Shown here in pieces: positions 1 through 34,193 of a stretch of 64,000 bases of DNA. The DNA comes from a virus. The position numbers were made by a program, and so were the translations under genes. The notes under the pieces were generated by a model. The model was not told where the DNA came from. It ran no database searches and saw only the letters and a list, made by a program, of their open reading frames with translations. Positions within the stretch are counted from its first letter, which is position 1. Each line of letters begins with the position of its first letter. The DNA lies in the IMG/VR virus record IMGVR_UViG_3300025151_003852, positions 1 through 64,000 of that record, one strand, 5' to 3'.

Positions 1-3000
1 AAACGTAACTTTTCAAAGTCACCATCAACTTCATTGAAGTATTCTTCTCCGTCTAATGCACCTTTGATTGATTCTTGGAAGAAAGGCTGATCTGGATCTG
101 CTTCGTTCAACCATGCTTCTAATCGTTTCTTACTAATCTCTGTATCATCAACTAATAACTTAATAACTTCTCTAAATGCTGTACGCCATGTAGAGAATTC
201 ATCTGTGTTATACTGTGCGATACCTGATAGTAAAGGCACACTTGCATGTTCATCATCTAACGTAAAGTCTAAGCCATAACCATAGTTCTTAAGTGTTAAG
301 TCTTTGTTATACGCAATCATAGCCTGATGTCCATAGACTAATCCATTGACTGGATTCTTTGCTTCAAAGATATAATGCTTAGGTTGTTGCATTCTATCTG
401 GTTGCCAGTTAAAGTCAAACTTGGGCGATACTTTTAGTTTAGCAAATACAGTAAACGCCCAAGGTGTTTCACTTGCTTCTGCTGATGCGTGATATGCTTG
501 TACACGACCATCAACACCATCTACTCTTACTACTCTGTTTGGTACATTTTTTGTAATTTTTTGCAGATGTTCCCAATTTTCCTCTGCTCCTTTCTCTCCG
601 TTTGATAAGAAAACGATATCCATAGGCTTCGATAACGCAAGTCTATTGGCATTTTTAATATATGGGTATTCGTATAGTTCTCTCTTTACATGATCTTTTA
701 CTTCACGCGGAACTATAATTCTAGTTGCTCCTGTAGATTGTACTATGATGTTTTTAGACTCTGCTGTCCATAATGACATAGGTTCTTCATCAACTACTTG
801 TATATCTTCATCTGTTTTAGACACTAGAGTTACGTAAGGAAACTCATCTATATCTTTTAACGTCTTTGTATGTGTATCACTCTCAGAAACGATTACAGGC
901 GCTCTCAGACGTTGTGTACGCAACGTTTGATTGTAGTTTATCTTCTCGTAATCTTCTAATGATTCCATGTTGTCGATCAATTCACGTGTCTTGTTAACGT
1001 CTATAAAGAATGTATCTCCAAACTTTTGTTTACTGCTTGGAAACACATGCAATTGATCACGTGCAAATGGATCGCATATATAAGAGAAGTCAAAGTCACT
1101 GTAATCACAGATTGATGATGCTATCCATATGTGATGTTCTTTGCGTTTAGGTTGATCTTTAACAATCTTTTTCAACGTAGTAAGATAATCTGTATCATGT
1201 TCGATAGTACTTACACGTTGTCTTGGTGCTTTATCTTGTAATTGTTTAACAACTGCTTCTGTTTGTTTATTACCATGATCGACAACTACAATATCATATA
1301 CACATTCAGTGGCTACTGCTCTGTTTTCTTTTACAAAGTTTAAGTTGTCTAAGTGTTCGATGACATTAATGTATTTGGTGTCTTCATTAAATGTTTCTCT
1401 GTTAACCAGGTATGTTGTACCCCAATGCGACCATTGTGTACCGAACACATGTACCATTTTCATTTGCCATGGGTTAGGATAATAATTAAAATCAAATTCT
1501 TCGTAATCTAATTCTGAATTTAAGATCCAAAGTAAACTTGTTGTTGATCTGTTTATACATCTGCGAGTAGTTTCTACCCATGAGTTTAAGTATCTTGTTT
1601 TTTGTATGTTAGGATATCTCTCCTGTATTTTTGCAAATCGTTCTTTTGATTCTTTGTTCCCTCTATCAACATAGAACATATCTAAGTTGGCTTGAATTTC
1701 TCCTATTGAATCAGTCTCAACATAGTTAATTGTTGCATCTTTAAAGATTGCTGAGTTCACAAAATATGTTTGTGTGTTGATATTATCTTTAGAACCGAAG
1801 GCATGAATGTAATTAGATTGATAAACATCAGGTCTCCAACTAAAGTCAAAGTCTGTGTAAACTAAATCCATATTCAATGCCCAGAATACTTCGTTTGGAT
1901 GCTGTGCTACTAAATCTTCTAAAGTTGTTTCGATAAAGTAAACATCGATTTCATCAGGTATCACGTTGTCTGATTCAACGTTTTGTAAATATAATACTTT
2001 GCCATCATTGCCGGGCTGTACATACTTAGGACCGTCATCTTTACCTGCTGTACTACCAAACTGATAGATTGCAGGGTCTGCTGTATCATCTGGGTGCCAT
2101 GAAAAGTCAAACTTACTTACGTCTAAGTCACCGGGAACTACCCAATGTAGACGTTTACTGTTTGCTAACTTACGTGCTTTAATAATTCTTGTGTCAACAT
2201 ACTTGATGTCTTTTGCACCGGGTACTGTATATGTTGGACCACCTGTCTTTTGATGCTGTGTACCAAATTGATAAATGAATGGATCATCTTCTGCATATGG
2301 ATGCCAACTAAAGTCAAAGTCTTCGATATCTGCTGGGACTTTCCAGTTTGTTCTGTCACCATTATCAATTGAGTACGCAACTGGTTGCTCAATATATTTG
2401 ACTTTAGTAGCACCTTGAACTGTATACTTTGGACCACCTGTTAGTGCCCACTGAGTACCGAACTGATAAATGAAAGGCTCGTCTAAGATATCTGGATGCC
2501 ATGAGAAATCAAATCCTTCAACATCAATGCCTTCTGGTATTTCCCAGTTCTTTTTATTTGGTAACTTGTGAGCAATGTTACCCTCTACATATTTTACTTC
2601 AGTTGCACCCTCAACAATAAACTGCGGTCCACCTGTCTTTTGCCACTGAGTGCCAAACTGATAGATGTATGCTTGATCTTCAAGTGGAGATGGTCTCCAA
2701 CCAAAGTCAAAGTTTTTTGTATCTACATCGTCAGGTATAATCCAATCTTCATCATTTTCTTCTAACTGTGCAACTACATCATGTACATACTTGACAGACT
2801 CTGCGCCTATAACTCTGTATTCGATAGTAGGCATTTCTTCTGCTGAATAAAACTTGTTACCAAACTGATAGATGAATGGCTCGTCTGTTTCATCGTGGTG
2901 CCAACTGTAGTCAAAGTCTTTAATTTTATAGTTACCTAACGTTCCCCAATGTCTATTGTTAGGATCAGGTAATCTTTTTGATTTTATAATACGTGTATCA

Positions 3001-5516
3001 ATATATTTGATAGCACTACCTTCATGTGCCCCAGGTGTTATGTATTTGTGTCCACCTGTCTTTTGCCATTGAGTACCGAACTGATAGATAAAAGGCTCAT
3101 CTTCTGCATATGGATGCCACGAATAATCGAAATCATCTTCATCAATTAATTTAGGATCAAACTCCCAATTATCTTTACAAGGTAATGCTTGTGATACTTG
3201 ATCTTCTACATACTTAACTTCTTCTGCACCCTCAACTGTATAAACAGGTCCACCACTTAGAGCCCACTGTGTAGGAAATCTATAAGTGTAAGGTGGAGAA
3301 GTTGCATCCGGATGCCAACTGTAATCAAACTTATCACTATTAATATTGTCAGGGACAGTCCAATTGTCCATTTTAGGTAATGCTTTTGCTTTAAATTGTG
3401 TTTCATATTTTACCTCTGTTGCACCCTCAACATGATATCTTGGACCACCAGTCTTCTGCCATTGCGTACCAAACTCATGTATCATTGCTGGTTCGTTTGG
3501 ATTAGGCTTCCAACTAAAGTCAAACTCACTTACGTCTACGTCTTCTGGTATCTCCCAGTTTGTTTTATCGTGTCCTAATGTTGCTATCAAGTCATTAACA
3601 TAACTAACTTCGTCTGCTCCAATGACTCTATACTCTAACGTAGGCATTTGTTCAGCAGGATAATATTGATTACCAAACTGATAAATGAATGGCTCTGATG
3701 TTTCATCAGGATGCCAACTAAAATCAAATCCTTTGATACAATAGTTATTCAATACTCTGAAACTATTTGGATCTGCTAGTCTAGTTGCTTTTAGAATTCT
3801 TGTATCAATATATTTGACAGCACTGCCCTCATGTACTCCTGGAGTAACATATCTTGGTCCACCTGTCTTTTGCCATTGAGTACCAAATTGATAAATGTAT
3901 GGTTCGTCTTCTGCATAAGGATGCCAAGAAAAATCAAATGAATCTTCTTCGATTAACTTAGGATCAAATTCCCAGTTATCTTTGCATGACAATGCTTTTG
4001 CTACTTGCGAATCTACATACTTAACTTCTTCTGCATCATCACAACGATATATAGGACCACCTGACATAGCCCACTGAGTTGGGAAATGATAGATATATGG
4101 TACAGGTTCTGTCGAGTCTGGGTGCCATGAGAAATCAAATTCACTTGTGTCTATATTATCAGGTATTTCCCACTTATCTTCAGTGGGTGTTGCAATTGCG
4201 TAAAAAATATTTTGATATTTTGTTTCTGTTGCACCTTCTACAGTATAGATAGGTCCACCTGTCTTCTGATGTTGAGTGCCGAACTCATGTATCATAGCCG
4301 GCTCGTTAGGATTAGGTTCCCAACTAAAATCAAATGTATATTTTTGAATGTTGTCAGGTATTGTCCAGTTATCAGCACACGGCATACGTACAGTAGTTTC
4401 TGGCATAAACTGATATTCTGTTGCTCCTTCTACTTTAAACTCTATACTAACTTTATCTTCTGCTTTGTTCCATTGATTGCCCCATGCATAGATATAAGGT
4501 GGACTAGTAGGATTAGGTCTCCAACTAAAGTCAAACTCATTCATGTCAATTTTTTCATTTAACTTAAATAACTCTGGTTTAGATTTTAACTTGGGTGCAA
4601 ATTCTGTAATATGCTTTACTGCTTCTGCTCCTTCAACTTTGTAGATAAGTGTAGGCATAATAGTGCCATCATATAACTGATTACCAAATACATAGTTGAA
4701 TGGTTCTGTTTCGTTTGGATCAGGTCTCCACGTAAAGTCAAATGAGTCTTTTTCGATTTCTTCTAACACTTCCCAAACAGACATATCTACTGCTAAGTCA
4801 ACTGGCTTATCAATATACTTAATTGTGCCGTCATTACCGGGTACATGATATTCCATGATCGGTACTTGTTCTGCTGGTGCCCACTTGCTTCCCCATACAT
4901 AGATAAATGGCTCTGTGTCTAATGGGTCTGGACGCCATGTAAAGTCTACTTTACTTTCATCGATAGGTTCATTAATTTTCCACCTAGACATCTGTGGTTC
5001 AAGTTCGACAATAGTATCCATATACTTGACATGTCCTACATTATCAGGCGTATGATATTCTACAACACTTCTTTGTTCTGCTGTTGCAAATTTACTTCCC
5101 CATACATAAATGTAGGGAGGATCTGTAGGGTCTGGATGCCATGAGAAGTCAAATTTACTCTCATCAATTGTGTCAAACAGTTTCCAGCATTGATTTTTAA
5201 TAGACTTGCGTTTGATGGGTGCAACATCTGCACGATAAACTCTGATATCACTTTGTTCTTTAGCACATAACCAAGTGCCTGAATCTTTTTGATGTTGACT
5301 AGGCCATATGTTGTTGTGTTCTTCTGCCCAAACGTCTTCATCTGGTAAAAAATCAAAATCAAATTCCCAATCAAATCCTGTGTAATCACAAAACTCATTG
5401 ATTATCCAAAAGTGATCTGTCGTGGCTTCTTTGCGAGCCTCATCTATATCGAAAACTTGTCGTTCTCTAGGGTGAACGTTTGGTTTTTCACCAAAGTAAA
5501 ATACGTCTCTAAGCAT
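1..5516 (-). CDS. Giant repeat protein (>=1838 aa, 3' end outside window): 16 tandem ~67-aa repeats plus several degenerate GT-A-like domains
   Basis: Absent from the ORF track because its stop lies outside the window. Translated by hand from ATG at 5516 (MLRDVFYFGEKPNVHPRE...) with no stop found down to position 3 (...DGDFEKLR). The C-terminal domain (MDIVFLSNGE..RVDGVDG..AYHASAEASET..NPVNGLVYG..STWRTAFREVIK) is visibly paralogous to CDS 30784..31728. Confidence 0.9.
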   Translation of the reverse strand, partial: MLRDVFYFGEKPNVHPRERQVFDIDEARKEATTDHFWIINEFCDYTGFDWEFDFDFLPDEDVWAEEHNNIWPSQHQKDSGTWLCAKEQSDIRVYRADVAPIKRKSIKNQCWKLFDTIDESKFDFSWHPDPTDPPYIYVWGSKFATAEQRSVVEYHTPDNVGHVKYMDTIVELEPQMSRWKINEPIDESKVDFTWRPDPLDTEPFIYVWGSKWAPAEQVPIMEYHVPGNDGTIKYIDKPVDLAVDMSVWEVLEEIEKDSFDFTWRPDPNETEPFNYVFGNQLYDGTIMPTLIYKVEGAEAVKHITEFAPKLKSKPELFKLNEKIDMNEFDFSWRPNPTSPPYIYAWGNQWNKAEDKVSIEFKVEGATEYQFMPETTVRMPCADNWTIPDNIQKYTFDFSWEPNPNEPAMIHEFGTQHQKTGGPIYTVEGATETKYQNIFYAIATPTEDKWEIPDNIDTSEFDFSWHPDSTEPVPYIYHFPTQWAMSGGPIYRCDDAEEVKYVDSQVAKALSCKDNWEFDPKLIEEDSFDFSWHPYAEDEPYIYQFGTQWQKTGGPRYVTPGVHEGSAVKYIDTRILKATRLADPNSFRVLNNYCIKGFDFSWHPDETSEPFIYQFGNQYYPAEQMPTLEYRVIGADEVSYVNDLIATLGHDKTNWEIPEDVDVSEFDFSWKPNPNEPAMIHEFGTQWQKTGGPRYHVEGATEVKYETQFKAKALPKMDNWTVPDNINSDKFDYSWHPDATSPPYTYRFPTQWALSGGPVYTVEGAEEVKYVEDQVSQALPCKDNWEFDPKLIDEDDFDYSWHPYAEDEPFIYQFGTQWQKTGGHKYITPGAHEGSAIKYIDTRIIKSKRLPDPNNRHWGTLGNYKIKDFDYSWHHDETDEPFIYQFGNKFYSAEEMPTIEYRVIGAESVKYVHDVVAQLEENDEDWIIPDDVDTKNFDFGWRPSPLEDQAYIYQFGTQWQKTGGPQFIVEGATEVKYVEGNIAHKLPNKKNWEIPEGIDVEGFDFSWHPDILDEPFIYQFGTQWALTGGPKYTVQGATKVKYIEQPVAYSIDNGDRTNWKVPADIEDFDFSWHPYAEDDPFIYQFGTQHQKTGGPTYTVPGAKDIKYVDTRIIKARKLANSKRLHWVVPGDLDVSKFDFSWHPDDTADPAIYQFGSTAGKDDGPKYVQPGNDGKVLYLQNVESDNVIPDEIDVYFIETTLEDLVAQHPNEVFWALNMDLVYTDFDFSWRPDVYQSNYIHAFGSKDNINTQTYFVNSAIFKDATINYVETDSIGEIQANLDMFYVDRGNKESKERFAKIQERYPNIQKTRYLNSWVETTRRCINRSTTSLLWILNSELDYEEFDFNYYPNPWQMKMVHVFGTQWSHWGTTYLVNRETFNEDTKYINVIEHLDNLNFVKENRAVATECVYDIVVVDHGNKQTEAVVKQLQDKAPRQRVSTIEHDTDYLTTLKKIVKDQPKRKEHHIWIASSICDYSDFDFSYICDPFARDQLHVFPSSKQKFGDTFFIDVNKTRELIDNMESLEDYEKINYNQTLRTQRLRAPVIVSESDTHTKTLKDIDEFPYVTLVSKTDEDIQVVDEEPMSLWTAESKNIIVQSTGATRIIVPREVKDHVKRELYEYPYIKNANRLALSKPMDIVFLSNGEKGAEENWEHLQKITKNVPNRVVRVDGVDGRVQAYHASAEASETPWAFTVFAKLKVSPKFDFNWQPDRMQQPKHYIFEAKNPVNGLVYGHQAMIAYNKDLTLKNYGYGLDFTLDDEHASVPLLSGIAQYNTDEFSTWRTAFREVIKLLVDDTEISKKRLEAWLNEADPDQPFFQESIKGALDGEEYFNEVDGDFEKLR
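1990..5200 (-). repeat. Coding tandem repeat, 16 copies of ~200 bp, consensus W-x-(I/V)P-x-x-(I/V)D-x-x-x-FDFSWHP-x(4-5)-PFIYQFGTQWQKTGGP-x-Y-x-VEGA-x-x-VKY
   Basis: FD(F/Y)(S/T/G)W(H/R/K/E)(P/H) cores found at about 5140, 4935, 4728, 4520, 4318, 4125, 3922, 3712, 3508, 3312, 3115, 2900, 2695, 2497, 2302 and 2095. Confidence 0.9.
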
Positions 5517-5522
5517 ATTATA

Positions 5523-5528
5523 TACTTA
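5523..5528 (-). promoter_or_regulatory. Candidate late promoter variant TAAGTA, 6 nt upstream of the giant repeat gene ATG
   Basis: Same spacing to ATG as the TAAATA motifs elsewhere in the window. It overlaps the upstream TAA stop, so it could be coincidental. Confidence 0.4.
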
Positions 5529-7061
5529 TGAAATTACGCGGGTCTTGTAAAGTTTTTCAAATCGATCTGCGTCGGATCTATCGTTAACCATGGGCTCACC
5601 TCGTACATTTAATGATGTGTTTAACAAGATAGGACATCCTGTTTCTTTATACCATGCTTCTAGCAATCTACGAATACCTGTGCCGTCATCTGGTACTGTT
5701 TGTACTCTGCTTGTGCCGTCTTTGTGTACAATAGCAGGGAACTTCTTAGGGTACTTACAAGGTGCTGTAACTTGCATGTAAGGTGAGTTGTTCCAATGCG
5801 TCGGCATTTCAAAATATTCATCTACAAGTTCTTCTAGTATCATAGGAGCGAACGGTCTAAACTGTTGTCTCTTTTTAATCTTGTTTACTTCTGATTTTAT
5901 CTTTGATCCTCTTGGGTCTGCTAGTAATGATCTAGTTCCCAATGCTCTAGGACCGAACTCAGCACGTCCAGAGGCTATCCCCACAATCTTATCTTCTTTT
6001 AGTGCTTTAACAGTTTCAACAACAGGATAAACACCTACAATATCTGTACCTAAAAATGCGTTTTTCCAGTTTAATTTCTTGCCGTAGCCTAATGCCGCGG
6101 CTCCTAATGAATTACCTGCATCACCTGGATTAGGCATAATCCAAATGTTTTCAAAATATGTACCCAAGAATCTATTAGCAGAACAGTTAAGTGCAACTCC
6201 TCCACCATAGACTAAGTTATCACTATCATTTAGTGTTCTTGCTTTGCTCATTACTATTTTAATAAGTTTTTCTACATACACTTGTGCTGATGCGGCTATG
6301 TCGAACTCATCTGCTCCTTCTAAGAATGAATCGTCAATACCGATGTGTGTATTCTCTTTAAACAACAATGAATCTGTATGGGCTCCAAACTTATCTTCTA
6401 TGTCTTTAACATACTTAGGCTCACCATATGCGGCCATACCCATTAGAATGTATTCTTCGTCTAGTGGTCGTAAACCTAATCTTGCTGTCATTGCACTATA
6501 GTATAATCCAATAGAGTTAGGGTACTTAAGTGTCCATAACTTTTTATACTTTGCTCTGCCCCGTTTATTATAATATCCTTTCCATATAGTAGCACAATCA
6601 TTCTCACCGATTGCGTCTATCACAACTATAGTTGCTTCATCAAAAGGTGATGTTTGAAAACTGGCTGCCGCGTGACATTTGTGATGAGGATGAGTTTGAA
6701 CAATATTAGGTATATGTCCGTCATGCATAAAGTGACCCCATGTTGATGTCACTCTGTTTAGTAACTCGTTGTATATGTTTTCTCCAAAGATTTGTGAGAA
6801 TCTAAACGGTCCTAACTTTTGACCTGCTCTAAACTGACGCCAGGCTTTTACCCAAGGTCGTTCATAATAATTTACAAATAACCGGTCTTCCTTGTTTACC
6901 CATTCTAATGCTTCATCGATAATTTCCGGACACAACTCTGAGTCATGTTTCTTTTTACTATATCGTTCACTGTGACCTGCAAATAAAATGTCTCCGTTGT
7001 CGTCTACCAAAGATACGCCTGCATCATGGAATCCACAACTAATGCCTAAATATTTTTTCAT
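5526..7061 (-). CDS. O-carbamoyltransferase, NodU/CmcH/TobZ family
   Basis: Family motifs HDAG..SERYS.KKH, HHKCHAAA, DAIGE, EYILMGMAAYG, GGVALN, P.PGDAG, GRAEFGPRALG.RS, KKRQQFRPFAP, H.DGTSRVQTV, LNTSLN.RGEP. Confidence 0.93.
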   Translation of the reverse strand: MKKYLGISCGFHDAGVSLVDDNGDILFAGHSERYSKKKHDSELCPEIIDEALEWVNKEDRLFVNYYERPWVKAWRQFRAGQKLGPFRFSQIFGENIYNELLNRVTSTWGHFMHDGHIPNIVQTHPHHKCHAAASFQTSPFDEATIVVIDAIGENDCATIWKGYYNKRGRAKYKKLWTLKYPNSIGLYYSAMTARLGLRPLDEEYILMGMAAYGEPKYVKDIEDKFGAHTDSLLFKENTHIGIDDSFLEGADEFDIAASAQVYVEKLIKIVMSKARTLNDSDNLVYGGGVALNCSANRFLGTYFENIWIMPNPGDAGNSLGAAALGYGKKLNWKNAFLGTDIVGVYPVVETVKALKEDKIVGIASGRAEFGPRALGTRSLLADPRGSKIKSEVNKIKKRQQFRPFAPMILEELVDEYFEMPTHWNNSPYMQVTAPCKYPKKFPAIVHKDGTSRVQTVPDDGTGIRRLLEAWYKETGCPILLNTSLNVRGEPMVNDRSDADRFEKLYKTRVIS

Positions 7062-7207
7062 TTGTAGATGAACGGATCCCTCTTTTTAAGTTCTGCTAAA
7101 CGTTTCTTGTATTCTTTTTCACGTTTATATTTGATATAGGGTGTCTTTAAGAAATCAGCAATCTTACGAATAAATGATTTGAGTTTGTTAATTATCTTTT
7201 TAAACAT
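7058..7207 (-). CDS. Small basic protein, 49 aa, ending RDPFIYK (reminiscent of the PFIY-motif SxtK/DUF5989-like peptides found beside carbamoyltransferases)
   Basis: Hand-translated MFKKIINKLKSFIRKIADFLKTPYIKYKREKEYKKRLAELKKRDPFIYK. ATGA overlap with the carbamoyltransferase start, GAGGA upstream, fills the intergenic gap. Confidence 0.75.
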   Translation of the reverse strand: MFKKIINKLKSFIRKIADFLKTPYIKYKREKEYKKRLAELKKRDPFIYK

Positions 7208-7950
7208 TTGTATTCCTCATTAAAGTTAATCAATTCATCAGCAAATAATTTGTGCGGTTCTTCGCCGTGATGCCAATACTTTGCTTTTTCGTTGACATAT
7301 CCCAGACGTTGATATTTTTGATAAAATGCTTCGTCTTTATTGTTTAACTGATAGTATTTATTGTCATCTACCAAGGGTAAAAGATTTTGAATAGCAGGTA
7401 TGTTATCTAAAAAGAATGGCATCGAATTTAACATCAGATAAGGAATCTTATGTGATTGCAATAGATATTGTACTTGTAAAATTAATTGATATGTTTGATA
7501 CTCTAAGTAAGGCTGATGATTAACCATAAATTTGTGCAAGTCTGGAGTGTGTTTTTGTTCTTCTTCATCTCCACCAGTCCAACCTATAATAACTTTATAA
7601 AAGTAATCACTGCCCTTTTCATACCAAGCAGTTGCATGTGATGCACTTTCATAGTTACGTTGTGATTCACTAGGTATTTCTAATCTAGTAGGTTCTGTCC
7701 ATGATACAAGTACATTGACATTCATAGTATCTGGATTATAACAATTGTGGAACCATTGCAATACTTGTCTACTAATACCTGTATTAGTTGCACCCACTTG
7801 TGCGATATTAACTGGCTTACGTTTTAACTTTTTAGCAACTAACGCACCATATGCATGTTCTCTGTTATATTTTGAATCTTCTTCTCCGTCGATCTCAGAT
7901 CCTGCGGCGTGTGAGCAACCAGCAATTAATAATATCTTTTCTTTTTTCAT
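7192..7950 (-). CDS. SGNH/GDSL-like protein (putative acyl esterase/transferase)
   Basis: Block I-like AGCSHAAG, NIAQVGATN, VSWTEPTRLE, C-terminal WHHGEEPHKLFA. Paralogous to 15766 and 18927. Confidence 0.6.
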   Translation of the reverse strand: MKKEKILLIAGCSHAAGSEIDGEEDSKYNREHAYGALVAKKLKRKPVNIAQVGATNTGISRQVLQWFHNCYNPDTMNVNVLVSWTEPTRLEIPSESQRNYESASHATAWYEKGSDYFYKVIIGWTGGDEEEQKHTPDLHKFMVNHQPYLEYQTYQLILQVQYLLQSHKIPYLMLNSMPFFLDNIPAIQNLLPLVDDNKYYQLNNKDEAFYQKYQRLGYVNEKAKYWHHGEEPHKLFADELINFNEEYKCLKR

Positions 7951-13541: not shown

Positions 13542-13570
13542 ACGTTGCTTATGTACTCCCGTTACATGTA

Positions 13571-13630
13571 TATTTAACAAAATTTCACACCTGCAATATT
13601 TTTAACGACTGTCCTTTTCTATACTAAATA
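13571..13630. promoter_or_regulatory. Divergent pair of late-promoter-like TAAATA motifs (minus 13571-13576; plus 13625-13630)
   Basis: Each motif points toward an SD sequence (GGGAG / AGGAG) and ATG of the divergent genes at 13541 and 13654. Confidence 0.65.
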
Positions 13631-13653
13631 TTAACATAGGAGTAGATAATAGT

Positions 13654-14773: not shown

Positions 14774-14775
14774 AG

Positions 14776-15761: not shown

Positions 15762-15765
15762 GTAG

Positions 15766-20081: not shown

Positions 20082-20109
20082 AATAATCTCCATATATGTG
20101 TTCTATCTC

Positions 20110-20116
20110 TATTTAT
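20110..20116 (-). promoter_or_regulatory. Late-promoter-like ATAAATA
   Basis: Intergenic, 7/8 match to T4 late consensus TATAAATA. Confidence 0.6.
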
Positions 20117-20137
20117 TCTACGCCGGATGTACGTAAA

Positions 20138-26178: not shown

Positions 26179-26179
26179 A

Positions 26180-26854: not shown

Positions 26855-28098
26855 TCTTCTAAATCTCGTAAACTATTGAGTTCTGGAAACACACTCCAGA
26901 AGTCCTCATCTCTTATTTTATCTATGGACGCAGTGTGTTGCATCATAATCTTTTTGTTATCTTGCCATGTATTATCTTCATTAGCAAAATTAACTGCATC
27001 TCTAATTAAACGTGATAAACTTGTTTTGTCACCTTCAAACTTATCAGCAAACTTTAAAGCATTCTCTGCCGCCGGTCCCTTCATTGCAGTAGGTAAACTC
27101 TTAGCACTATAGTAACTAGGATGCACAGCAAGATATAAACTATGATACCAATCTTCTGCTCTTACAATATTCTTATCTTTAAGATATTGATAAAACTCAC
27201 CGATCATTGGGTAATTAAACATAGAGAATACTGTGTTCATTTGAAATGTTACGTAATCTAAATCTCTGAATGTAAGTAAGTTGTTTTCTACTACACCCCA
27301 GTCTGTTCCTTTACGTAACCATTCTGCTCTTTCGCCATAATGATCAACTGAACAACTTAACTCAATATTATCAAAGTGTTTCCAAAGTTCTAATATATCA
27401 TGCTTCTTATATTTAATATTACTTGCGTTAGTATTATACCTTAAGACAGGTTTTTTACCACGTCTAATAAATTCTTCTAACATGACATAATGTTCGTCTG
27501 TAATAAGTGGCTCTCCACCTGCAAAATAACATAAGTCAATATTGTCAATGTGTTCTAGTGTTTCTTCTAGTACTGTTCCTGTTTGATCGTCTGCATGTAT
27601 TAAGATAGGATGTTCAGGATCGTGGTTGGCTCGCATCTCTGCTCCCCATTGCGAACTAAACTCACTGCCACATGTGCGACATTTGAAATTACATATATTA
27701 GAGAACCTAATATCAAAGTAATGCATTCTAAAGTCATCTACTGTTCCGTCTGCTTTTGTCTGTGGTACTAATTCATCGAATCGTTTACCAAAGTGTTCTT
27801 TAGAATAGTTTCTAAAACTATGCGGGCCTGCTTCTTCATGTTTGTAGCAGAAATCACATACACTATTCTTTTTCTCGTTTAGCATATCTAAACGCAATTG
27901 TTTCATTTTGTCATTGTTAAATGCTTCTTTCAATGATGTTTCTTTTGTGTTGCCAAATGGTTGAGTATAGTCATTAGAACAACAAGGATAGATATCTCCT
28001 TTGGGTGTTACGTTTAAATGTAACCAAGGAAACATACAGAATGTTTTACTTTCTTCTAATAAGTAAGTTTTATCGACTATTGGAATACGTTCACTCAT
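26851..28098 (-). CDS. Radical SAM protein with N-terminal twitch/SPASM-like Cys cluster
   Basis: FCMFPWLH..PCC..CDFC, DIRFSNICNFKCRTC, FAGGEP, YNTN. Confidence 0.9.
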   Translation of the reverse strand: MSERIPIVDKTYLLEESKTFCMFPWLHLNVTPKGDIYPCCSNDYTQPFGNTKETSLKEAFNNDKMKQLRLDMLNEKKNSVCDFCYKHEEAGPHSFRNYSKEHFGKRFDELVPQTKADGTVDDFRMHYFDIRFSNICNFKCRTCGSEFSSQWGAEMRANHDPEHPILIHADDQTGTVLEETLEHIDNIDLCYFAGGEPLITDEHYVMLEEFIRRGKKPVLRYNTNASNIKYKKHDILELWKHFDNIELSCSVDHYGERAEWLRKGTDWGVVENNLLTFRDLDYVTFQMNTVFSMFNYPMIGEFYQYLKDKNIVRAEDWYHSLYLAVHPSYYSAKSLPTAMKGPAAENALKFADKFEGDKTSLSRLIRDAVNFANEDNTWQDNKKIMMQHTASIDKIRDEDFWSVFPELNSLRDLEE

Positions 28099-29417
28099 GG
28101 TCGTAAAATCTCTGGTACTTTATATAGAGCCGCTAACTCAGGGAATGTGTTTATAAAATTCTCTCCTCTTAGGGCATCTATTCTTTTTATTTCTTCTTTG
28201 AATTCGACTTCTCTTTCATTCCAAGTATCTTTAGACATCAACCACGGAATAACTTGTTGTATTTCATTTATTTGTTCTTGTCTAAAGTTTAAGTCTTTCA
28301 TGTAACTCATAGTTAAATGCAACTGTTCAAGTGCTTGTTCTTTATAACCGTCTGGTAATACATGTGAAGACAAATGTTCTGGCGAACCCATGCTATAGAG
28401 AGTCCATACAGAACTCTCAGGCGTATAAAAATGATTGTCTATCATGTACTTGTAAAAATGCGAAATAGTCAATGCGTTGAATATACTATACACCGTATTA
28501 ACCTGAAAGTTAACATTCTTTGCTTTCTTTAATTTCTTTAGATTTGTTTCAATCGTTTTCCATTTAGTACCGTGTCTAATATATTCTGCTTTTTCTCCCA
28601 TGTGATCTATCGATGCATAAATCTGTATTGGCTGTGTAAAGTTTTCCCAAAGTTTAAAGATATCTCGTTTTTTATATCTAAAATTAGATATGTTTGTATT
28701 ATACCTTAATTGAATATCTGTTTTCTTTTTAGCAATCATTTCATCAATTAACATATAATGTTCATCAGTGATTAATGGCTCTCCACCTGCAAAGTATGCA
28801 ACTTCAAAATTAGGAACTTGCTTTAATACTTCTAATATAAATTCTTCTCTGTTGCCTTTTTCTAACTCTATAGCATACATAGGCAACCCTGTTTGCTCAC
28901 GTGATTCTAAATCTTCTTGTTCCCATTTAGAACTAAAAGCACTGCCGCATGTACGACATTTAAAGTTGCAAATATTACTAAAACGAATATCAAAATATCT
29001 CATACGAAAGTTTACAATTCGTCCTGTATTCATGTCTGTTGTTTCTATCACATCATTAAAGTAATCAGCCCATGCTTCATTACTTTGTGTTCTGAAACTT
29101 GGTATACCCTGATCGTCATGCTTGTGACAGTTTGCACACTCAGGGTTTTTAGTTCCCTTTAACATATCTAAACGTAACTTCTTCATTTTAGGAGAGTTAA
29201 CTAAGTCTGCAAGACTACTACGATTAGAGTTACCAACACCTTGATTATCAGCACAAGATTTTGCAATACAACAAGGCGCTCCCTGACCAGTAGGCGTAGT
29301 GTGCATGTGTACCCATGGAATCATGCAGAAAGTTTCTGATCTATTAAGAAGCAAATCTTTTAGAAAGATTGCCTGCTTCTTATCTACAGCGGGTTTGTTA
29401 GGCTTACTTGCTGGCAT
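28095..29417 (-). CDS. Radical SAM protein with N-terminal twitch/SPASM-like Cys cluster
   Basis: FCMIPWVH..PCC..CANC, DIRFSNICNFKCRTC, FAGGEP, YNTN. Confidence 0.9.
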   Translation of the reverse strand: MPASKPNKPAVDKKQAIFLKDLLLNRSETFCMIPWVHMHTTPTGQGAPCCIAKSCADNQGVGNSNRSSLADLVNSPKMKKLRLDMLKGTKNPECANCHKHDDQGIPSFRTQSNEAWADYFNDVIETTDMNTGRIVNFRMRYFDIRFSNICNFKCRTCGSAFSSKWEQEDLESREQTGLPMYAIELEKGNREEFILEVLKQVPNFEVAYFAGGEPLITDEHYMLIDEMIAKKKTDIQLRYNTNISNFRYKKRDIFKLWENFTQPIQIYASIDHMGEKAEYIRHGTKWKTIETNLKKLKKAKNVNFQVNTVYSIFNALTISHFYKYMIDNHFYTPESSVWTLYSMGSPEHLSSHVLPDGYKEQALEQLHLTMSYMKDLNFRQEQINEIQQVIPWLMSKDTWNEREVEFKEEIKRIDALRGENFINTFPELAALYKVPEILRP

Positions 29418-30784
29418 AATTTATAAAAATCCATAAACTCTGGATACACTGTTAATATATCTGTTTCTCTACGATCATCTAATTCGTTAAAGAAGTTGTA
29501 GAAATCTCTTCTACCTTCAATCAATTTATCTTCATCATAATGTGTGTTTTCCATATAGTCAACAACACGTTTAAACTTTTCATATTCAATTGTAGTAAAC
29601 TTATCACTACGTTCATTGTCTACATTGTCTTCGATAAACTTAAGTGACTCATACATATAAGGCATGAATTCTTCTTTAGGCAAGATGTTCATATCATACT
29701 GTAAAGGTTCTTTTAAGTATGGAGTATCAAATCTAACTCTGTGTTTATCTTCTGACTTCCAATCGTACCATCCATAGATAGCACGCCATTCTAAAAACTT
29801 TTCTAATAAACTTTTAAAGTCTGTTACTGCTAACAAATTAAACGTACACATAAACGTAACAGGAGAGTCTGTCTCTGTTAGATACGTATGTAAGTTCTTT
29901 TGAAAGAGTTCTAGGTCTAGTCCAGTTCTAATATATTCTGCTCGTTCTCCCCAGCAGTCTAAACTAGTAAAGAGTTTAAAACTTTCTAGTTTTTCTTCGT
30001 CACACAATTTCTTTACTGAACTACTTAGTCTTTTTACTAAAGCATTCTTTGTACCCAAATTAGTATTAATATTAAGTTCTAACCAAGGCATCGGGTCTTC
30101 GTCAATCTGTTTTAGCAGTCTCCATGTCGATGTATGCATAGTTGGTTCTCCACCTGTTACACGCAAGATGTTTAAGTCTTTACGCATAGATGGCCACCAC
30201 TCCCAGAACGCATCAACATATGGATTTTCTTCTTCACGTTCAAACAGTTTCATCCAATCAACATCGTTTCTGTGATTCTTTACAGTCTCAACTGGACCGA
30301 ACTGTTTGATCTCACTATGATAACTTGATGAATACTTTGGATGACAATAACCACACTTAAAGTTACACTCGTTACCAAAGTTAATCTCTAAGTATTCTGG
30401 ATTAATATTTTGATCCCAAGGACCATTAAGTGCTTGATCGAATCTTTCTTCTGTAAATATAGATCCGTTACGAATGTGTCTGTCTGAAATATAATCAGGA
30501 CCCATGTCTTCAACATTCCAGCAGTATTGACAACCTTCTGGTCGTTCACCTGCTAACATTTGTTTACGTTCCATTTTCTTTTCCCAAGTATTGTGTAACG
30601 CACTTGGATTATCTTTTAATTCATGTAATGGAATCTTATGTGGACGTGGATGATAGCAACTATGTGTCTCACCTGTTTGTAGATACATAGTAACGTGTTG
30701 CCATTTAGCAAGGCAGAATGAGGGAGTTGCCTCTTCTTCAACACGTATTTGTATTGTTTTTATTCTATCTGTTTCTTTAGACAT
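29384..30784 (-). CDS. Radical SAM protein with N-terminal Cys/His cluster
   Basis: FCLAKWQH..HSCYHP..CQYCW, EINFGNECNFKCGYC, TGGEPT, NTN, SLD..EYIRTG. Confidence 0.9.
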   Translation of the reverse strand: MSKETDRIKTIQIRVEEEATPSFCLAKWQHVTMYLQTGETHSCYHPRPHKIPLHELKDNPSALHNTWEKKMERKQMLAGERPEGCQYCWNVEDMGPDYISDRHIRNGSIFTEERFDQALNGPWDQNINPEYLEINFGNECNFKCGYCHPKYSSSYHSEIKQFGPVETVKNHRNDVDWMKLFEREEENPYVDAFWEWWPSMRKDLNILRVTGGEPTMHTSTWRLLKQIDEDPMPWLELNINTNLGTKNALVKRLSSSVKKLCDEEKLESFKLFTSLDCWGERAEYIRTGLDLELFQKNLHTYLTETDSPVTFMCTFNLLAVTDFKSLLEKFLEWRAIYGWYDWKSEDKHRVRFDTPYLKEPLQYDMNILPKEEFMPYMYESLKFIEDNVDNERSDKFTTIEYEKFKRVVDYMENTHYDEDKLIEGRRDFYNFFNELDDRRETDILTVYPEFMDFYKLCQQVSLTNPL

Positions 30785-31728
30785 TACCAGCCCTCTATTT
30801 CTCTGATAATCTCCATCTCTGTGACAAGGGGACCTAAGTTTCTTTTGTCTGCATTATAATGTCTTTTAAAAAACTTTGATTGTTCTGCATCAAGCATGTT
30901 CATAGGCAAACCCAACTTTGCTTGTAGTTCTGCCCCTATTTCTTTTGCGGCTTCTATAGGATCATTATTTAAGTACTGATCCCACATATCAGGATAGTTA
31001 TCAAACCATTGAATGTCTGTGTGATTGAAGTCTGTTAACATCGTCATGTATGTTCCCAGTCTTGCTCCATAGATTGCCCATGCACCGTTCTCTGCATCTA
31101 AGCCTACATTTTGCCATATAGTTAGATTGTTTAAATTTTTATCTGCAACTCTACCTTTAAACTCGTCTACAGTAACTAATGCACCTCGATCTAATACCAT
31201 TTTAACACCTTCTCTAAAACCAGCACGCCATGCTTGAAATGCTGATTTGTTAGGGTAAGTAGTTGAGTAGCAATCATACATTGCCCAATACAATGAGTCT
31301 GCTGAGTTCATCATAAAGTCAACTTGAGTTGCTTCAGAGCCATCAGTATGTTCATGTGTAGTCATGTTTTCTACATAAGTTTTAGTCCATGAACTCATGC
31401 CTCCGTTACCATAACGCAAGCCATTAATAGCATTGATAGACTTCCATCTAAATTGTGCTTGTTGATAATTAGGATCTTTATCTGTAAAGTCTAGTTGTAT
31501 ATTGAAAAAATCTTCTTCAGGTAATGTGTCACCATCGATAAGAATAAATCTTTCTGTTTCACTTAACTCACCTGCGGCTTTGTGTGCTTGATCACTGCCT
31601 AATACGCCGTCTACTCTTTGAGCCCATGGGACCATGTTTTTAACTTGTACCCAAAATTCTTCTTTTTGTGGCTCATCATAACTTAGATAGATTACATCCA
31701 AGTCTGCAATATCAATAATATTACTCAT
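30784..31728 (-). CDS. GT-A-fold glycosyltransferase-like protein
   Basis: DVIYLSYDEP, RVDGVLG, FILIDGD (DxD), NGLRYGNGG, AWRAGFREGVK. Start moved to ATG 31728 (MSNIID). Confidence 0.62.
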   Translation of the reverse strand: MSNIIDIADLDVIYLSYDEPQKEEFWVQVKNMVPWAQRVDGVLGSDQAHKAAGELSETERFILIDGDTLPEEDFFNIQLDFTDKDPNYQQAQFRWKSINAINGLRYGNGGMSSWTKTYVENMTTHEHTDGSEATQVDFMMNSADSLYWAMYDCYSTTYPNKSAFQAWRAGFREGVKMVLDRGALVTVDEFKGRVADKNLNNLTIWQNVGLDAENGAWAIYGARLGTYMTMLTDFNHTDIQWFDNYPDMWDQYLNNDPIEAAKEIGAELQAKLGLPMNMLDAEQSKFFKRHYNADKRNLGPLVTEMEIIREIEGW

Positions 31729-31882
31729 CAAACTTCCTTTCACCTCGTGAATAACTATCCTCAGGATCTATTTCGGCATCAGCATTCATAAATCGCATAC
31801 GTTGTACTAAGTCCCAATTGACATCTTTCCAATTTTCATGGATGCTTGTGTATTCTTCTTTTTCTTTATCCGATTTCTTCAC
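31721..31882 (-). CDS. Small hypothetical protein, 53 aa
   Basis: Hand-translated from GTG: MKKSDKEKEEYTSIHENWKDVNWDLVQRMRFMNADAEIDPEDSYSRGERKFDE. Fills the gap and overlaps both neighbours. Confidence 0.5.
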   Translation of the reverse strand: MKKSDKEKEEYTSIHENWKDVNWDLVQRMRFMNADAEIDPEDSYSRGERKFDE

Positions 31883-32228
31883 TGTACAACTCCCAATATC
31901 TACCTTTAGATTTATCTGTTACAAGTATACTTATATCATCTACAGAAACCAGTATACCTGATGTACTAGGCTTATATTTTTGTACACCCGCTTTTCTTCT
32001 ATTACGAGTAATGCGACCATCGATCACTTTGATGTCAGGTCTGGCTTCTGCAAATACGCCGGAATCGATGACAATGTAATTACCTTCTGGTTTTTCACAT
32101 GTATAAAAGTCAACGGTGCCGTCTTCTTTATAATACAACCTAAACTCAGGAGCCTCAATCTTGGGTGCTTCCCAAACAGTGATATATTCTTCGTTGTCAT
32201 CAGTCGGACTGGTGTTTTTATCACTCAT
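31866..32228 (-). CDS. Hypothetical protein
   Basis: 120-aa ORF, ATGA-coupled to the upstream GT-like gene. Confidence 0.7.
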   Translation of the reverse strand: MSDKNTSPTDDNEEYITVWEAPKIEAPEFRLYYKEDGTVDFYTCEKPEGNYIVIDSGVFAEARPDIKVIDGRITRNRRKAGVQKYKPSTSGILVSVDDISILVTDKSKGRYWELYSEEIG

Positions 32229-33022
32229 TGAATCGACTCCTTTATTTTATCAGAAAATGATTTGATATGATAGTGAAACGGATACGTCTGTGGGATTGTG
32301 TTCACTCTTAATGTATGAGGATAAATCTCATACAATAAAGTATCAGTCCATTTTTCTGATGGTGTACCATTAATAAATTGCTTCATGTGTATCATAGAAA
32401 ATTCTTTAAAAGTTGGAAGTGTAGACTTTTCAACTCCTATAAGATGACACGCATAAGCATAAATCCAGTCAGTCGTTGCTGGTTCATCTGGATTACATTG
32501 AAGTGTGTCTCTAAACTCACTCCAATTCTCAAAGACATGTCTTACAATGTCAAAGAATTCTTTTGCTGTTTCTGACTTTTTAAAATAAGTTATAGCATTG
32601 TATACGTCTGGCAGTTCATTATCGTCTATAAACCTACGATAGGTGCGTACATGCGATATATTCTGCTTGAAGTCACGTATATGTGTAGAGACAACTAAGT
32701 CTCTTTGTTTAAGTATATCCCACCAATAGTCTATTGATGAAGGAATATACAAGTCTGCTTCTAATTTGATTGTGTGTTTATAAGGACTTGCTTCATACAC
32801 TTGCCAATCATTGATAAGTTTCCAATCACTATCAGGTTCTAAGTCTCCATAGGGTAATGGAATAACTTTATGAAAAGCCTTACACTTTGTTTTGTCATCA
32901 GAGATTAATGATACTTTTGCATCTGGCATCACTCTCATTATAGACTCTGCTAATTGTTCTGCACACTGGACATAGTTGACATCGGCTGTATTTTGTGCTA
33001 ATATAACGAAACCCTTATCCAT
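32225..33022 (-). CDS. GT-A-fold (GT8-like) nucleotide-sugar transferase-like protein
   Basis: GFVILA, VSLISD, YEASPYKHTIKLEAD (ExD), VYNAITYFKKS. Paralogous to the adjacent gene. Confidence 0.65.
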   Translation of the reverse strand: MDKGFVILAQNTADVNYVQCAEQLAESIMRVMPDAKVSLISDDKTKCKAFHKVIPLPYGDLEPDSDWKLINDWQVYEASPYKHTIKLEADLYIPSSIDYWWDILKQRDLVVSTHIRDFKQNISHVRTYRRFIDDNELPDVYNAITYFKKSETAKEFFDIVRHVFENWSEFRDTLQCNPDEPATTDWIYAYACHLIGVEKSTLPTFKEFSMIHMKQFINGTPSEKWTDTLLYEIYPHTLRVNTIPQTYPFHYHIKSFSDKIKESIQ

Positions 33023-33881
33023 TCATAATCCCCACAAATAAATCTTTGTTCATAACATGAAAGTCCATGTCTTTAATTAGCATATATTCTTTTCTAACTT
33101 TGCTTTTCTTCCAATGATCAAACATGATTGTAAATTCTGTGTTAAAGTCATATACTTGACCGTCACAAGGCACTTGTACATCTACATTATTTGCATAGAC
33201 TGAAGTGTTTTTACCTACGTGTACTAAGTTCCATGGTATATAATCACTTGGTACATCTGTATGACCATTAACAATTTTAAGTGCAATTGTTAGTCCATAG
33301 TCATTACGATATACTCCACCAATAAAACTATGAATACCTGCATAATGTTCGTAATTGTTTTGCACCATTTCTAAAGTTTCAAAGATTTGCTTTGCACGTT
33401 CAGATTTCTTAAACATAATTACAGTTGCCCATAATGTTTCATATGAATAGCCCATCTTTTCTTGTGCCGCTTCTGGGTGCATAAGCATGTGTGTACGGTC
33501 ATGACAACAGAATGTGTCAGACAAGTCAAATGTTTTTAGTAGTGTATCAGAATTGACAAGATAGTCAACATCGATAAGGAGCGTTTCCTCATAAGGACTC
33601 AGTTCATATGCTTGATATCGACCTTTGTTGATCCAAGATGTTTGATCTTTAATATTAGTTAAATCAGGTTCAACTTCGACTACCCCGTCAAATACATTTC
33701 TATCATCTAATATAGTTTTGTATGTATCTACATCTGTAATTAGAGTTGTAGGTAAATCTAAAAATGCTCTTACTCTTTTTGCAGTATAGACGGCCATATC
33801 GGCATAATTATATTTGCTAGAATTAAAAGCAAATAAAACTACGCCTCTAGTTTTTACCTTTTCCTTTCTAGTTCTTTCCAT
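33015..33881 (-). CDS. GT-A-fold (GT8-like) nucleotide-sugar transferase-like protein
   Basis: GVVLFA, TTLITD, YELSPYEETLLIDVD (DxD), WATVIMFKKS, RND, HVMNK. Confidence 0.68.
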   Translation of the reverse strand: MERTRKEKVKTRGVVLFAFNSSKYNYADMAVYTAKRVRAFLDLPTTLITDVDTYKTILDDRNVFDGVVEVEPDLTNIKDQTSWINKGRYQAYELSPYEETLLIDVDYLVNSDTLLKTFDLSDTFCCHDRTHMLMHPEAAQEKMGYSYETLWATVIMFKKSERAKQIFETLEMVQNNYEHYAGIHSFIGGVYRNDYGLTIALKIVNGHTDVPSDYIPWNLVHVGKNTSVYANNVDVQVPCDGQVYDFNTEFTIMFDHWKKSKVRKEYMLIKDMDFHVMNKDLFVGIMNG

Positions 33882-34159
33882 TCACTGTTCCACTCAGTCA
33901 TCACGTTATTATATGTTTTAGTAAGAGATTCTAACAATTGTAGTCTATCTACTTTTACTGGATTTTCAAACGTGTCGATAACGACAAGAGTTTCATCAGA
34001 AAATGAATTAAGAAAGCCTATAGTTTGAGCATCGGCATTCCACAAACCGCCTTGTTCTGCAATGACAAGTTTGCTCTTATATTTTTCTTGTAGGTATGCT
34101 TTGGCTGAATTATGACTAAATCTAGCCTTTGCATCTTTGATTAATTTTGTTGTATCCAT
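33854..34159 (-). CDS. Hypothetical protein, first gene of the modification cluster
   Basis: ATG 34159 (MDTTKLIK) follows GGGAG and TAAATA. Confidence 0.72.
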   Translation of the reverse strand: MDTTKLIKDAKARFSHNSAKAYLQEKYKSKLVIAEQGGLWNADAQTIGFLNSFSDETLVVIDTFENPVKVDRLQLLESLTKTYNNVMTEWNSEWKELERKR

Positions 34160-34193
34160 AGTAAATAATACTCCCATGAGTATTTAGATGGAT
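34154..34193 (-). promoter_or_regulatory. Late promoter TAAATA (34181-34186) within a hairpin that pairs the SD and AUG
   Basis: Minus strand reads ATCCAT-C-TAAATACTC-ATGG-GAGTATTATTTA-CT-ATGGAT. AATACTC/GAGTATT and ATCCAT/ATGGAT are perfect inverted repeats. Confidence 0.62.

Follow-up and report, generated by a model that had tools for sequence, protein, structure and literature searches.

A probable sugar-building and sugar-tailoring island with a conserved core and a variable shell behind the tail-fibre genes of a predicted jumbo phage

The window analysed here is the first 64 kb of the 128,169-bp linear IMG/VR virus record IMGVR_UViG_3300025151_003852. Directly behind its tail-fibre genes lies a 34-kb block that is, with high confidence, a sugar-building and sugar-tailoring island equipped with natural-product-type enzymes. 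A sequence-only reading of positions 1–34193 had already described a sugar-tailoring cluster attached to the tail module and had treated it as one 34-kb unit. The nature of the cluster is borne out by StrB1-type, NovN/TobZ-type, GDP-mannose 3,5-epimerase (GME)-type and glycosyltransferase family 8 (GT8) assignments; the chemistry class, the fibre linkage and a probable late control stand as first described. The single-unit view does not: instead, the block divides into a conserved core of ~5 kb and a variable shell of ~29 kb. For these two layers we propose, giving the proposal about even chances, a phage-encoded glycan assembly and tailoring pathway that would operate in the cytoplasm and act on virion proteins.

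Conserved core and variable shell of the island

The core operon (29384–34177, minus strand) holds two GT8 genes, one gene for a glycosyltransferase family 2 (GT2)-like protein, one gene for an N-terminal-twitch (N-twitch) radical S-adenosylmethionine (SAM) enzyme and two genes for small proteins. Conservation was counted in the best 80 loci carrying the core GT8 gene; these loci extend only 10 kb downstream of that gene, and the counts for genes at 3–19895 are lower bounds. The end of the giant protein that precedes the fibres, the gene at 36433–37053, both fibre genes and all core genes recur in 71 to 80 of these loci. Both GT8 genes (32225–33022 and 33015–33881) are found in all 80, the GT2-like gene in 79, and the core radical SAM gene (29384–30784) in 71, with a median identity of 72.5%. 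The two small core proteins, one of 107 residues encoded by the first gene of the operon (33854–34177, minus strand) and one of 120 residues (31866–32228, minus strand), are each present in 79/80 loci. A more distant set of 39 loci, whose GT8 protein is ~31% identical to that of the window, was found with single-protein queries; conservation in an alignment of distant GT8-like proteins was too low throughout for a locus scan. All 39 have both GT8 genes, 36 have the GT2-like gene, 31 the radical SAM gene (57% identity) and 30 a fibre gene. The GT8-like family counts 4034 homologues in one database (E <=0.001) and 2148 cluster representatives at 50% identity in another, and the core GT8 gene is found on at least 574 viral contigs. 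The core is widespread and uncharacterised.

Genes of the shell are distributed very differently. Further N-twitch paralogues find matches in 69–71 of the 80 loci, with an identity of just 35–43%. A short radical SAM gene (23900–24913) is present in 37 loci, the GT-B genes in 17–33 and the epimerase gene in 16, and genes at 3–19895 occur in 21 loci at most, mostly in 0–8. Nine close relatives retain the whole arrangement. Shells that differ from this one encode other sugar enzymes in relatives: an epimerase of RmlC type (5e-35), a nucleotidyltransferase with a cupin, an FkbM methyltransferase, a short-chain dehydrogenase/reductase (SDR), a thiamine pyrophosphate enzyme, a kinase, a haloacid dehalogenase (HAD) phosphatase and many DUF6071 proteins. 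Three RNA-library contigs (X1, X4 and X8, from two studies) join 18961 to 21554 through 38 other letters; this junction is a strain variant without the GT-B gene 20138–21499 and the SGNH-like gene 18927–19895.

Linkage to the fibre and baseplate module, claimed from the window alone at first, is kept in 79/80 loci, in 29 to 39 of the 39 distant loci and in Ralstonia phage RsoM2USA. In this cultured phage, the baseplate wedge is followed by the giant protein, the fibres, homologues of the 288-, 265- and 319-aa core proteins, and the radical SAM enzyme. A second locus combines a carbamoyltransferase gene (43% identity) with two or three genes of SGNH-like type and a further N-twitch radical SAM gene. 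The available text of the RsoM2USA paper gives no annotation for the island genes, and reports the 2541-aa counterpart of the giant protein in virions (PMC8504454). When the GT8-like and GT2-like proteins were compared by tblastn with 50,697 phage records, RsoM2USA alone was matched; one radical SAM protein retrieved, in addition to RsoM2USA, two Vibrio phages and one marine virus fragment. None of these three cluster proteins matched a pelagiphage or a cyanophage. At the nucleotide level, 14 kb of the cluster gave a sole megablast match in the 50,697 records, of 136 bp in an epimerase gene. We found no paper on the island in this phage lineage in open-access text.

The island is densely packed. 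Positions 1–34193 contain 28 open reading frames (ORFs) of at least 80 aa, 25 of them on the minus strand, and three small ORFs (15512–15712, 19896–20093 and 7058–7207) fill gaps. The block is hence dense and mostly co-oriented as first described, with about 31 genes rather than the ~35 counted at that time. From 34177 down to 20138, 14 genes abut or overlap, save for a single 122-nt gap.

As to the phage itself, which is marine and uncultured, the CheckV completeness of the record is 37%, which would imply a genome of about 350 kb and hence a jumbo phage. The baseplate wedge protein (56514–59897) shows ~32% identity to those of Rak2/121Q/Atu_ph07/XbC2-type jumbo phages. Genes for a portal, a major head protein, a prohead protease, a tape measure protein and a ribonucleotide reductase lie elsewhere on the contig.

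Enzymes of the two layers

Because the six transferase-like proteins of the island matched no Pfam glycosyltransferase family at E values up to 5, two of them were modelled with AlphaFold2 (AF2). The model of the 265-aa core protein (32225–33022, minus strand; mean predicted local distance difference test score, pLDDT, 96.7) has a GT-A fold, and its top Foldseek matches are glycogenin (E 1.3e-8), LgtC, GlyE and XXYLT1, with E values from 1e-8 to 5e-6, as expected for a glycogenin/LgtC-like GT8 enzyme. Its 288-aa neighbour (33015–33881, minus strand) is a paralogue (BLASTP E 1e-9), and E88-A-D90 of the former aligns with a D-V-D motif of the latter. Across the family, D90, H212 and H250 show little or no variation; we take these residues to correspond to the D-x-D-type metal site and the downstream catalytic His of GT8 enzymes. 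The third core transferase-like protein (30784–31743, minus strand; 319 aa) takes the label GT2-like only from the automatic name of its Atlas cluster and from a DGD motif that is conserved. PDB sequence searches with its family returned chance ankyrin-type matches only. In a metagenomic protein (P0319), a GT8-like domain and a GT2-like domain are naturally fused (E 5e-27). Three GT-A-like proteins had been proposed: the fold of one and the paralogy of another support GT8, and the third keeps its name by cluster and motif only.

Three GT10-like proteins had been proposed as well. The model of the first (20138–21499, minus strand; pLDDT 89.9) adopts a GT-B fold and has Helicobacter pylori alpha-1,3-fucosyltransferase (2nzx) as its first Foldseek match (E 4.6e-4). 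VIA-align gives Z scores of 9.6–9.9 for the fucosyltransferase-like assignment; 2nzx, at Z 9.6, is tied within Z 8–10 with GT4-type enzymes, T4 alpha-glucosyltransferase and other GT-B enzymes. The second protein (22456–23985, minus strand) is a paralogue of the first (E 8e-10), and the C-terminal half of the third (8829–10697, minus strand; 622 aa) is a paralogue of the second (BLASTP E 1e-16); the N-terminal ~230 residues of this third protein have no family assignment. PDB sequence and profile searches with the family gave nothing useful. The GT-B fold hence stands, with one protein modelled and two paralogues, and GT10 ties with other GT-B families.

The SDR encoded between two of these genes (21483–22463, minus strand) matches plant GME (PDB 2c59) over residues 3–321 with E 5.1e-92, versus 8.8e-28 for the next family, in agreement with its first description as a GME-like epimerase. 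Its gene overlaps a fucosyltransferase-like GT-B gene on both sides. GDP-L-galactose is the 6-hydroxy analogue of GDP-L-fucose. Given these flanking genes and this analogy, transfer of L-galactosyl or L-gulosyl residues may reasonably be inferred.

All seven radical SAM enzymes counted in the sequence-only reading match PF04055, five above and two below the Pfam cut-off. Four of them belong over their full length to NCBIfam NF033640 (N_Twi_rSAM; curated cut-off 170 bits), with scores of 312–371 bits: the core enzyme (29384–30784, 312.4 bits) and three paralogues at 24898–26178 (349.6 bits), 26851–28098 (361.2 bits) and 28095–29417 (370.9 bits), all on the minus strand. A CX3CX2C motif (C136, C140, C143) and four N-terminal cysteines (C21, C39, C81, C84) are invariant in the four proteins, and Pfam places a SPASM domain at the N-terminus of three. 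A PDB sequence search with the N-twitch enzymes gave no useful match, and no paper on the family was found in open-access text. The short enzyme (23900–24913, minus strand; Pfam 33.7 bits) scores 35.1 bits against NF033640 and is a non-member. The two remaining enzymes are B12-binding by Pfam and NCBIfam. One of them (17002–18930, minus strand) has NF033712 as its best match, at 241 bits and thus below the cut-off of 700, and is of the KedN5-like C-methyltransferase type. The other is annotated at 11229–13580 (minus strand); its true start is likely an in-frame ATG ~30 nt past the TAAATA motif at 13571.

Elsewhere on the contig, genes at 108833–109966, 110023–110412 and 71568–72584 encode the SAM synthetase MetK, a NifU-like Fe-S scaffold and an eighth radical SAM enzyme, a set that looks like a supply line for radical SAM enzymes. 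The MetK gene is preceded by TAAATA.

Several observations concern radical SAM genes outside the window. A close relative (L005, 11320–12564) has ~1.2 kb extra between two N-twitch genes, which leaves room for another gene. Vibrio phage K566 (L195, OZ196521.1 161548–167037, 255 kb) carries a distant radical SAM cluster (~22% identity) away from its structural genes and ~4 kb from a PagP-annotated gene. A 1.7-kb contig in a Flavobacteriaceae metagenome-assembled genome (MAG; L140) encodes a radical SAM protein 83% identical to that of the window; this is either mis-binned phage DNA or a faint hint at the host, and the G+C content of the window (33–41%) is compatible.

On the plus strand, an amidinotransferase (13654–14616) matches StrB1, the inosamine-phosphate amidinotransferase of streptomycin synthesis (PDB 1bwd), with E 3.1e-60 over residues 4–317. 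Its identification thus holds across the full length. The protein ends in GGCFHCVT, in which the cysteine is presumably the catalytic nucleophile. The carbamoyltransferase (5526–7061, minus strand) is equally well founded: it belongs to the O-carbamoyltransferases of NodU/NovN/GdmN/TobZ type (Pfam 2.7e-50 and 3.6e-39; PDB NovN, E 2.4e-48). The aminotransferase (10606–11232, minus strand) is a short, 208-aa member of the DegT/DnrJ/EryC1-type sugar aminotransferases (Pfam 62.4 bits; cut-off 19.8), again as first named. Its ORF and that of the 622-aa protein overlap by 92 nt in different frames (10606–10697), reflecting either a later start of the downstream gene or a frameshift link.

Three SGNH-like proteins had been listed, and weak-to-moderate DUF6071 or GDSL matches together with an invariant Ser, Asn and His are in line with this. 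They are encoded at 7192–7950 (DUF6071, weak, E 0.0029), 15766–16650 (DUF6071, 1.7e-10) and 18927–19895 (GDSL, E 0.031), all on the minus strand. The glycine of the conserved GxSN block was read by eye from the consensus, and a PDB sequence search with the set gave weak GDSL-type rows only (E 0.12–1.3). The cupins of the first description fare less well: a single Asp_Arg_Hydrox match (E 0.071) weakly supports one possible cupin or 2-oxoglutarate (2OG)-oxygenase-like protein (14931–15515, plus strand). A PP-loop/QueC-like ATP-dependent enzyme (7947–8828, minus strand) is a lead only, from Atlas viral clusters in which 14–38% of the members carry PF06508.

Promoter motif, acceptor and competing explanations

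TAAATA had been placed at 34181, 20110, 13571 and 13625, and all four placements are confirmed. The first (34181–34186, minus strand) heads the core, and the last lies 29 nt upstream of the amidinotransferase gene. Within the 40 nt preceding genes, TAAATA outnumbers every other hexamer and stands before 20 of 92 genes versus ~1.5 expected, at 7–12 or 29–37 nt from the gene start. In relatives, it precedes the first core gene in 63 of 63 distinct upstream sequences and the fibre gene at 35184–36401 in 54 of 72. Before internal genes, the counts are 0/62, 2/83, 0/11, 4/65 and 3/63. The core is therefore headed by the same motif as the structural genes, as had been claimed. The full T4 late octamer invoked at the same time, TATAAATA, has just 2 exact matches in 64 kb versus 8.9 expected, and none at the four places named.

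T4 late promoters are recognised via a gp55-type sigma factor, and a gp55-like late sigma factor is encoded on the contig at 67751–68704 (phrog_12791, 3.7e-71). By analogy with T4 and because of this homologue, TAAATA may be a late promoter, and the core is probably transcribed late in infection. No minus-strand terminator was found between the fibres and the core, and sigma-70-type sites are not in excess. RNA-library contigs from one marine sample cover all 30 bins of 18000–37900, with possible DNA carry-over. One of them spans the fibre–core junction (33492–35936), and such contigs show presence, not timing. Contig depth, which cannot rank genes, is 2–4x higher for the fibre genes than for the cluster.

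Two fibre genes directly adjoin the core. The first product (34215–35168, minus strand; 79/80 loci) is a fibre-type protein with 30% Ser+Thr, whose C-terminal 40 residues keep a Thr/Ser-rich pattern across 79 homologues, which makes it a candidate acceptor. The second (35184–36401, minus strand) is a tail fibre with a C-terminal chaperone-type domain, from Pfam and PHROG matches, and 24% Ser+Thr. The most likely acceptor would be Ser/Thr-rich virion proteins such as these adjacent fibres. Hydrophobic segments are absent from all enzymes and occur only in an 83-aa protein and a DUF481 protein; all island enzymes look soluble. In five large relatives (63–92% complete), a Wzx flippase, a WbaP-type and a WecA-type initiating transferase were each found 0/5 times, with controls positive in 9–13 of 14 known genomes. 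Lipid-linked export would therefore need host machinery. Soluble enzymes together with the lack of a flippase and of an initiating transferase in these relatives favour virion proteins over the host surface or DNA, and we rate a virion protein as the target at a little under an even chance.

Combining these data, the pathway could run as follows. The first layer would be the conserved core operon (29384–34177), starting at TAAATA directly behind the tail-fibre genes; the second, the swappable shell (1–29417), would supply and edit sugars. The GME-like enzyme would make GDP-L-galactose or GDP-L-gulose, and the flanking fucosyltransferase-like GT-B enzymes would transfer the resulting sugar. The StrB1-type amidinotransferase would add a guanidino group. 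Further editing would fall to the aminotransferase, the O-carbamoyltransferase and the two B12 radical SAM methylase-type enzymes, and also to the N-twitch paralogues and the SGNH esterase/acyltransferase-type proteins, with MetK and the NifU-like protein feeding the radical SAM enzymes. The fibres would be glycosylated in the cytoplasm before virion assembly. The order of the glycan chemistry is one that we infer.

Several observations weigh against this pathway. None of the six transferase-like proteins has a Pfam glycosyltransferase match; the GT8-like protein of the window finds 0 Pfam families, PF01501 included, and only 2 of 49 members of its family give a weak match (best E 0.0043). The GT2-like protein owes its name to an Atlas cluster and a DGD motif. 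Genes without a structural role (a methyltransferase, a protease and MetK) have TAAATA upstream as well, and the motif may therefore not be late-specific. An outer-membrane-type DUF481 protein sits inside the block, and the fibres are candidate acceptors only. Synteny within one phage lineage may reflect inheritance rather than functional coupling. Finally, for bacterial N-twitch homologues, 55 loci were fetched, mainly from Bdellovibrionota and Flavobacteriales MAGs, and the neighbours were scanned in 12. They show tandem arrays of 2–5 genes beside PhoX, Na/Pi cotransporter, Ppx and two-component genes, or unrelated neighbours, and sugar genes are rare, with one GT9 and one GT1. Given this neighbourhood, N-twitch enzymes may act on substrates other than sugars. 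Among these loci, four (L143, L148, L152 and L153, from Bdellovibrionota-type MAGs and one Flavobacteriaceae-labelled MAG) have 2–5 tandem N-twitch genes beside PhoX, a Na/Pi cotransporter, Ppx/GppA and a PhoB/PhoR-like pair.

The strongest competitor of virion glycosylation is remodelling of the host surface, in which the enzymes would alter the lipopolysaccharide (LPS) O-chain or the capsule through a host lipid carrier and host export, and would thereby block adsorption of competing phages. Fibre-linked GT8/radical SAM clusters of pelagimyophages have been interpreted as O-chain modification (PMC7029224, in its available text), and sugar clusters of cyanophages likewise as host-surface modification (PMC7824862, in its available text); both interpretations tell against a virion acceptor. 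The N-terminus of the DUF481 protein (26180–26854, minus strand; Pfam) resembles a signal peptide, and its gene is inserted between radical SAM paralogues; the Vibrio phage K566 cluster lies near a PagP-annotated gene. In addition, the variable shell resembles the diversity of O-antigen loci. However, no enzyme has a membrane segment, the flippase and initiating phosphoglycosyl transferases are missing from all five relatives (63–92% complete), and the DUF481 gene is accessory (5 of 80 relatives). A late-type promoter in a lytic jumbo phage would also leave little time for a surface change, and the core is conserved as strongly as the structural genes. On balance we regard host-surface remodelling as unlikely, though as the likeliest of the alternatives.

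An improbable but separate explanation concerns the N-twitch paralogues, which may not be sugar editors at all. They could modify the fibre or another protein directly, through cross-links like those of ribosomally synthesised and post-translationally modified peptides, through epimerisation or through formylglycine-type oxidation, or they could serve a function in phosphate stress, with the transferases acting independently. The phosphate-type context of the bacterial homologues, where sugar genes are rare in the 12 loci, speaks for this. On the other hand, one paralogue is fixed beside the GT2-like gene in 71/80 and 31/39 loci and in RsoM2USA, and a second combination, in which a GT2-like domain adjoins the short radical SAM enzyme, recurs in those distant loci whose gene order was inspected (the two gene types being present in 31/39 and 21/39).

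Antibiotic pathways provide the best solved matches of several shell enzymes (StrB1 of streptomycin; the NovN, GdmN and TobZ carbamoyltransferases), along with KedN5-type B12 radical SAM and DegT family matches, and a secondary metabolite has been proposed for a cyanophage cluster with carbamoyltransferases (PMC7824862, in its available text). The product might accordingly be a free small molecule, a soluble aminoglycoside-like pseudo-oligosaccharide, guanidinylated, carbamoylated and C-methylated, acting as an antibiotic or a signal. We find this quite improbable: the antibiotic-type enzymes are confined to the variable shell, in at most 8/80 relatives within the DNA fetched, whereas the conserved core consists of transferases tied to fibre genes. 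Moreover, the island counts at least six genes of transferase type, and Pfam and hydrophobic-segment scans revealed neither an exporter nor a self-resistance gene.

Hypermodification of DNA, in which the transferases would glycosylate modified phage bases and the tailoring enzymes would edit the sugars to evade host nucleases, has a very low probability: T4 alpha-glucosyltransferase and another phage transferase are among the tied GT-B neighbours (Z 8.9–9.3) and phage transferases that build diverse DNA glycans are published (Pyle et al. 2024, as cited in the available text of PMC12619734), but all five large relatives have exactly one PF00303 gene, the one examined matching cellular ThyA (E 9e-84) as a canonical thymidylate synthase, and the cluster lies within the structural module under a late-type motif, whereas DNA modification genes would be expected with replication genes. 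The lack of a second, hydroxymethylase-type thymidylate synthase homologue in these relatives weakens DNA glycosylation and fits the earlier remark that DNA-modification partners are absent; their absence from this contig is weak evidence, because only 37% of the genome is present.

The remaining features flank the island or fill it. Between the baseplate wedge and the fibre genes, a giant ORF (37209–56498, minus strand) encodes 6429 aa. Its Pfam matches (FG-GAP, E1_FCCH) are all under the models' own cut-offs, and its C-terminal part is kept in 75/80 relatives. The gene at 36433–37053 (minus strand; phrog_11259) encodes a highly conserved structural-module protein. A 51-aa ORF in between (37053–37208, minus strand), with TAAATA just upstream, occurs in 75 loci at a median identity of 60%; among 332 ORFs of 24–70 aa in 1–37300, it is the sole genuinely conserved one outside antisense shadows. 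At the other end, a repeat protein of more than 1838 aa (3–5516, minus strand), whose C-terminus is truncated by the contig end, combines 18 tandem copies of a ~67-aa FDFSWHPD unit with degenerate GT2-like domains. The repeats match the stretch that follows DxD in the GT2-like family, and the last GT2-like domain has lost its DxD; no Pfam, PHROG or NCBIfam match was found. Small genes inside the shell encode the 83-aa protein with one hydrophobic segment (14680–14931, plus strand), a 129-aa protein (16631–17020, minus strand) and a 65-aa basic protein (19896–20093, minus strand), with the TAAATA at 20110 upstream of the last. Farther along the contig (114723–116885), three tandem class-I SAM methyltransferase paralogues were observed, the first of which in transcription order has an upstream TAAATA.

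Relation to known systems and implications

Fibre-linked islands with GT8 and radical SAM genes are already published for pelagimyophages. The host recognition cluster of pelagimyophages and cyanomyophages is hypervariable and combines tail-fibre genes with transferases, chiefly of GT8, and with cassettes of radical SAM genes (Zaragoza-Solas et al. 2020, PMC7029224, in its available text). The island resembles it as a large variable region within the structural genes that combines fibres, glycosyltransferases (GT8 being the commonest) and radical SAM cassettes, with gain and loss of cassettes. According to the same text, these clusters belong to T4-like phages of ~140–190 kb, lie between VrlC and gp14 and are interpreted as modifying the host O-chain. 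By contrast, the phage studied here would be a ~350-kb jumbo phage, with a Rak2/121Q-type baseplate and a strictly conserved core operon. The likeness is one of layout, and descent is not supported, since tblastn matched no pelagiphage or cyanophage.

Glycosylation of virions is established by experiment in mycobacteriophages (Freeman et al. 2023, as summarised in the available text of PMC12619734). There too, phage transferases lie beside structural genes, and the glycans are carried by virion proteins. According to that summary, the mycobacteriophage systems differ in having two or so transferases and a Gram-positive-type host, and in lacking both a tailoring shell and radical SAM enzymes; their glycan is shown by experiment, whereas the present island is known from its genes. 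Jumbo cyanophages have sugar and 'secondary-metabolite' clusters (Iyer et al. 2021, PMC7824862), polymorphic like the shell and containing SDR epimerases, cupins, nucleotidyltransferases, several glycosyltransferase families, carbamoyltransferases, 2OG oxygenases and HAD phosphatases. In the available text of that paper, these clusters are not reported as fibre-linked, radical SAM enzymes have 0 mentions, and the clusters are interpreted as serving to decorate the capsule or to make an antibiotic.

The amidinotransferase and the carbamoyltransferase of the window are similar over their full length to StrB1 and to TobZ, NovN and GdmN. The latter act on free small molecules in actinomycetes, whereas the enzymes of the window sit among phage glycosyltransferases. 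Giant viruses of the Mimivirus group decorate their surface fibrils through an unusual-sugar pathway that includes a glycogenin-like GT8. Those clusters belong to eukaryotic viruses, and the likeness to them is by description only.

If the product is carried on the virion, phage-encoded virion glycosylation would be extended beyond mycobacteriophages, to a large clade of jumbo phages from aquatic and soil habitats. To our knowledge, radical SAM editing, amidino and carbamoyl transfer and L-galactose-type sugars have not been reported on any virus particle. We tentatively go one step further and consider, with some doubt, that the core could be a dedicated virion-protein glycosylation machine of a large and mostly uncultured jumbo-phage clade of Gram-negative hosts, with the shell writing a strain-specific, radical SAM-edited guanidino/carbamoyl fibre glycan. 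If so, these phages would wear a hypervariable, genome-set chemical coat, for host recognition or for escape from host defences, and the N-twitch radical SAM family would represent a new class of glycan-editing enzymes. The fibre-linked 'LPS genes' of marine phages, now taken as host-surface modifiers, would then have to be reread. As the core is present in one cultured phage, RsoM2USA, the question is testable. Regardless of the target, the four N-twitch paralogues represent a family without a studied member in the literature searched.

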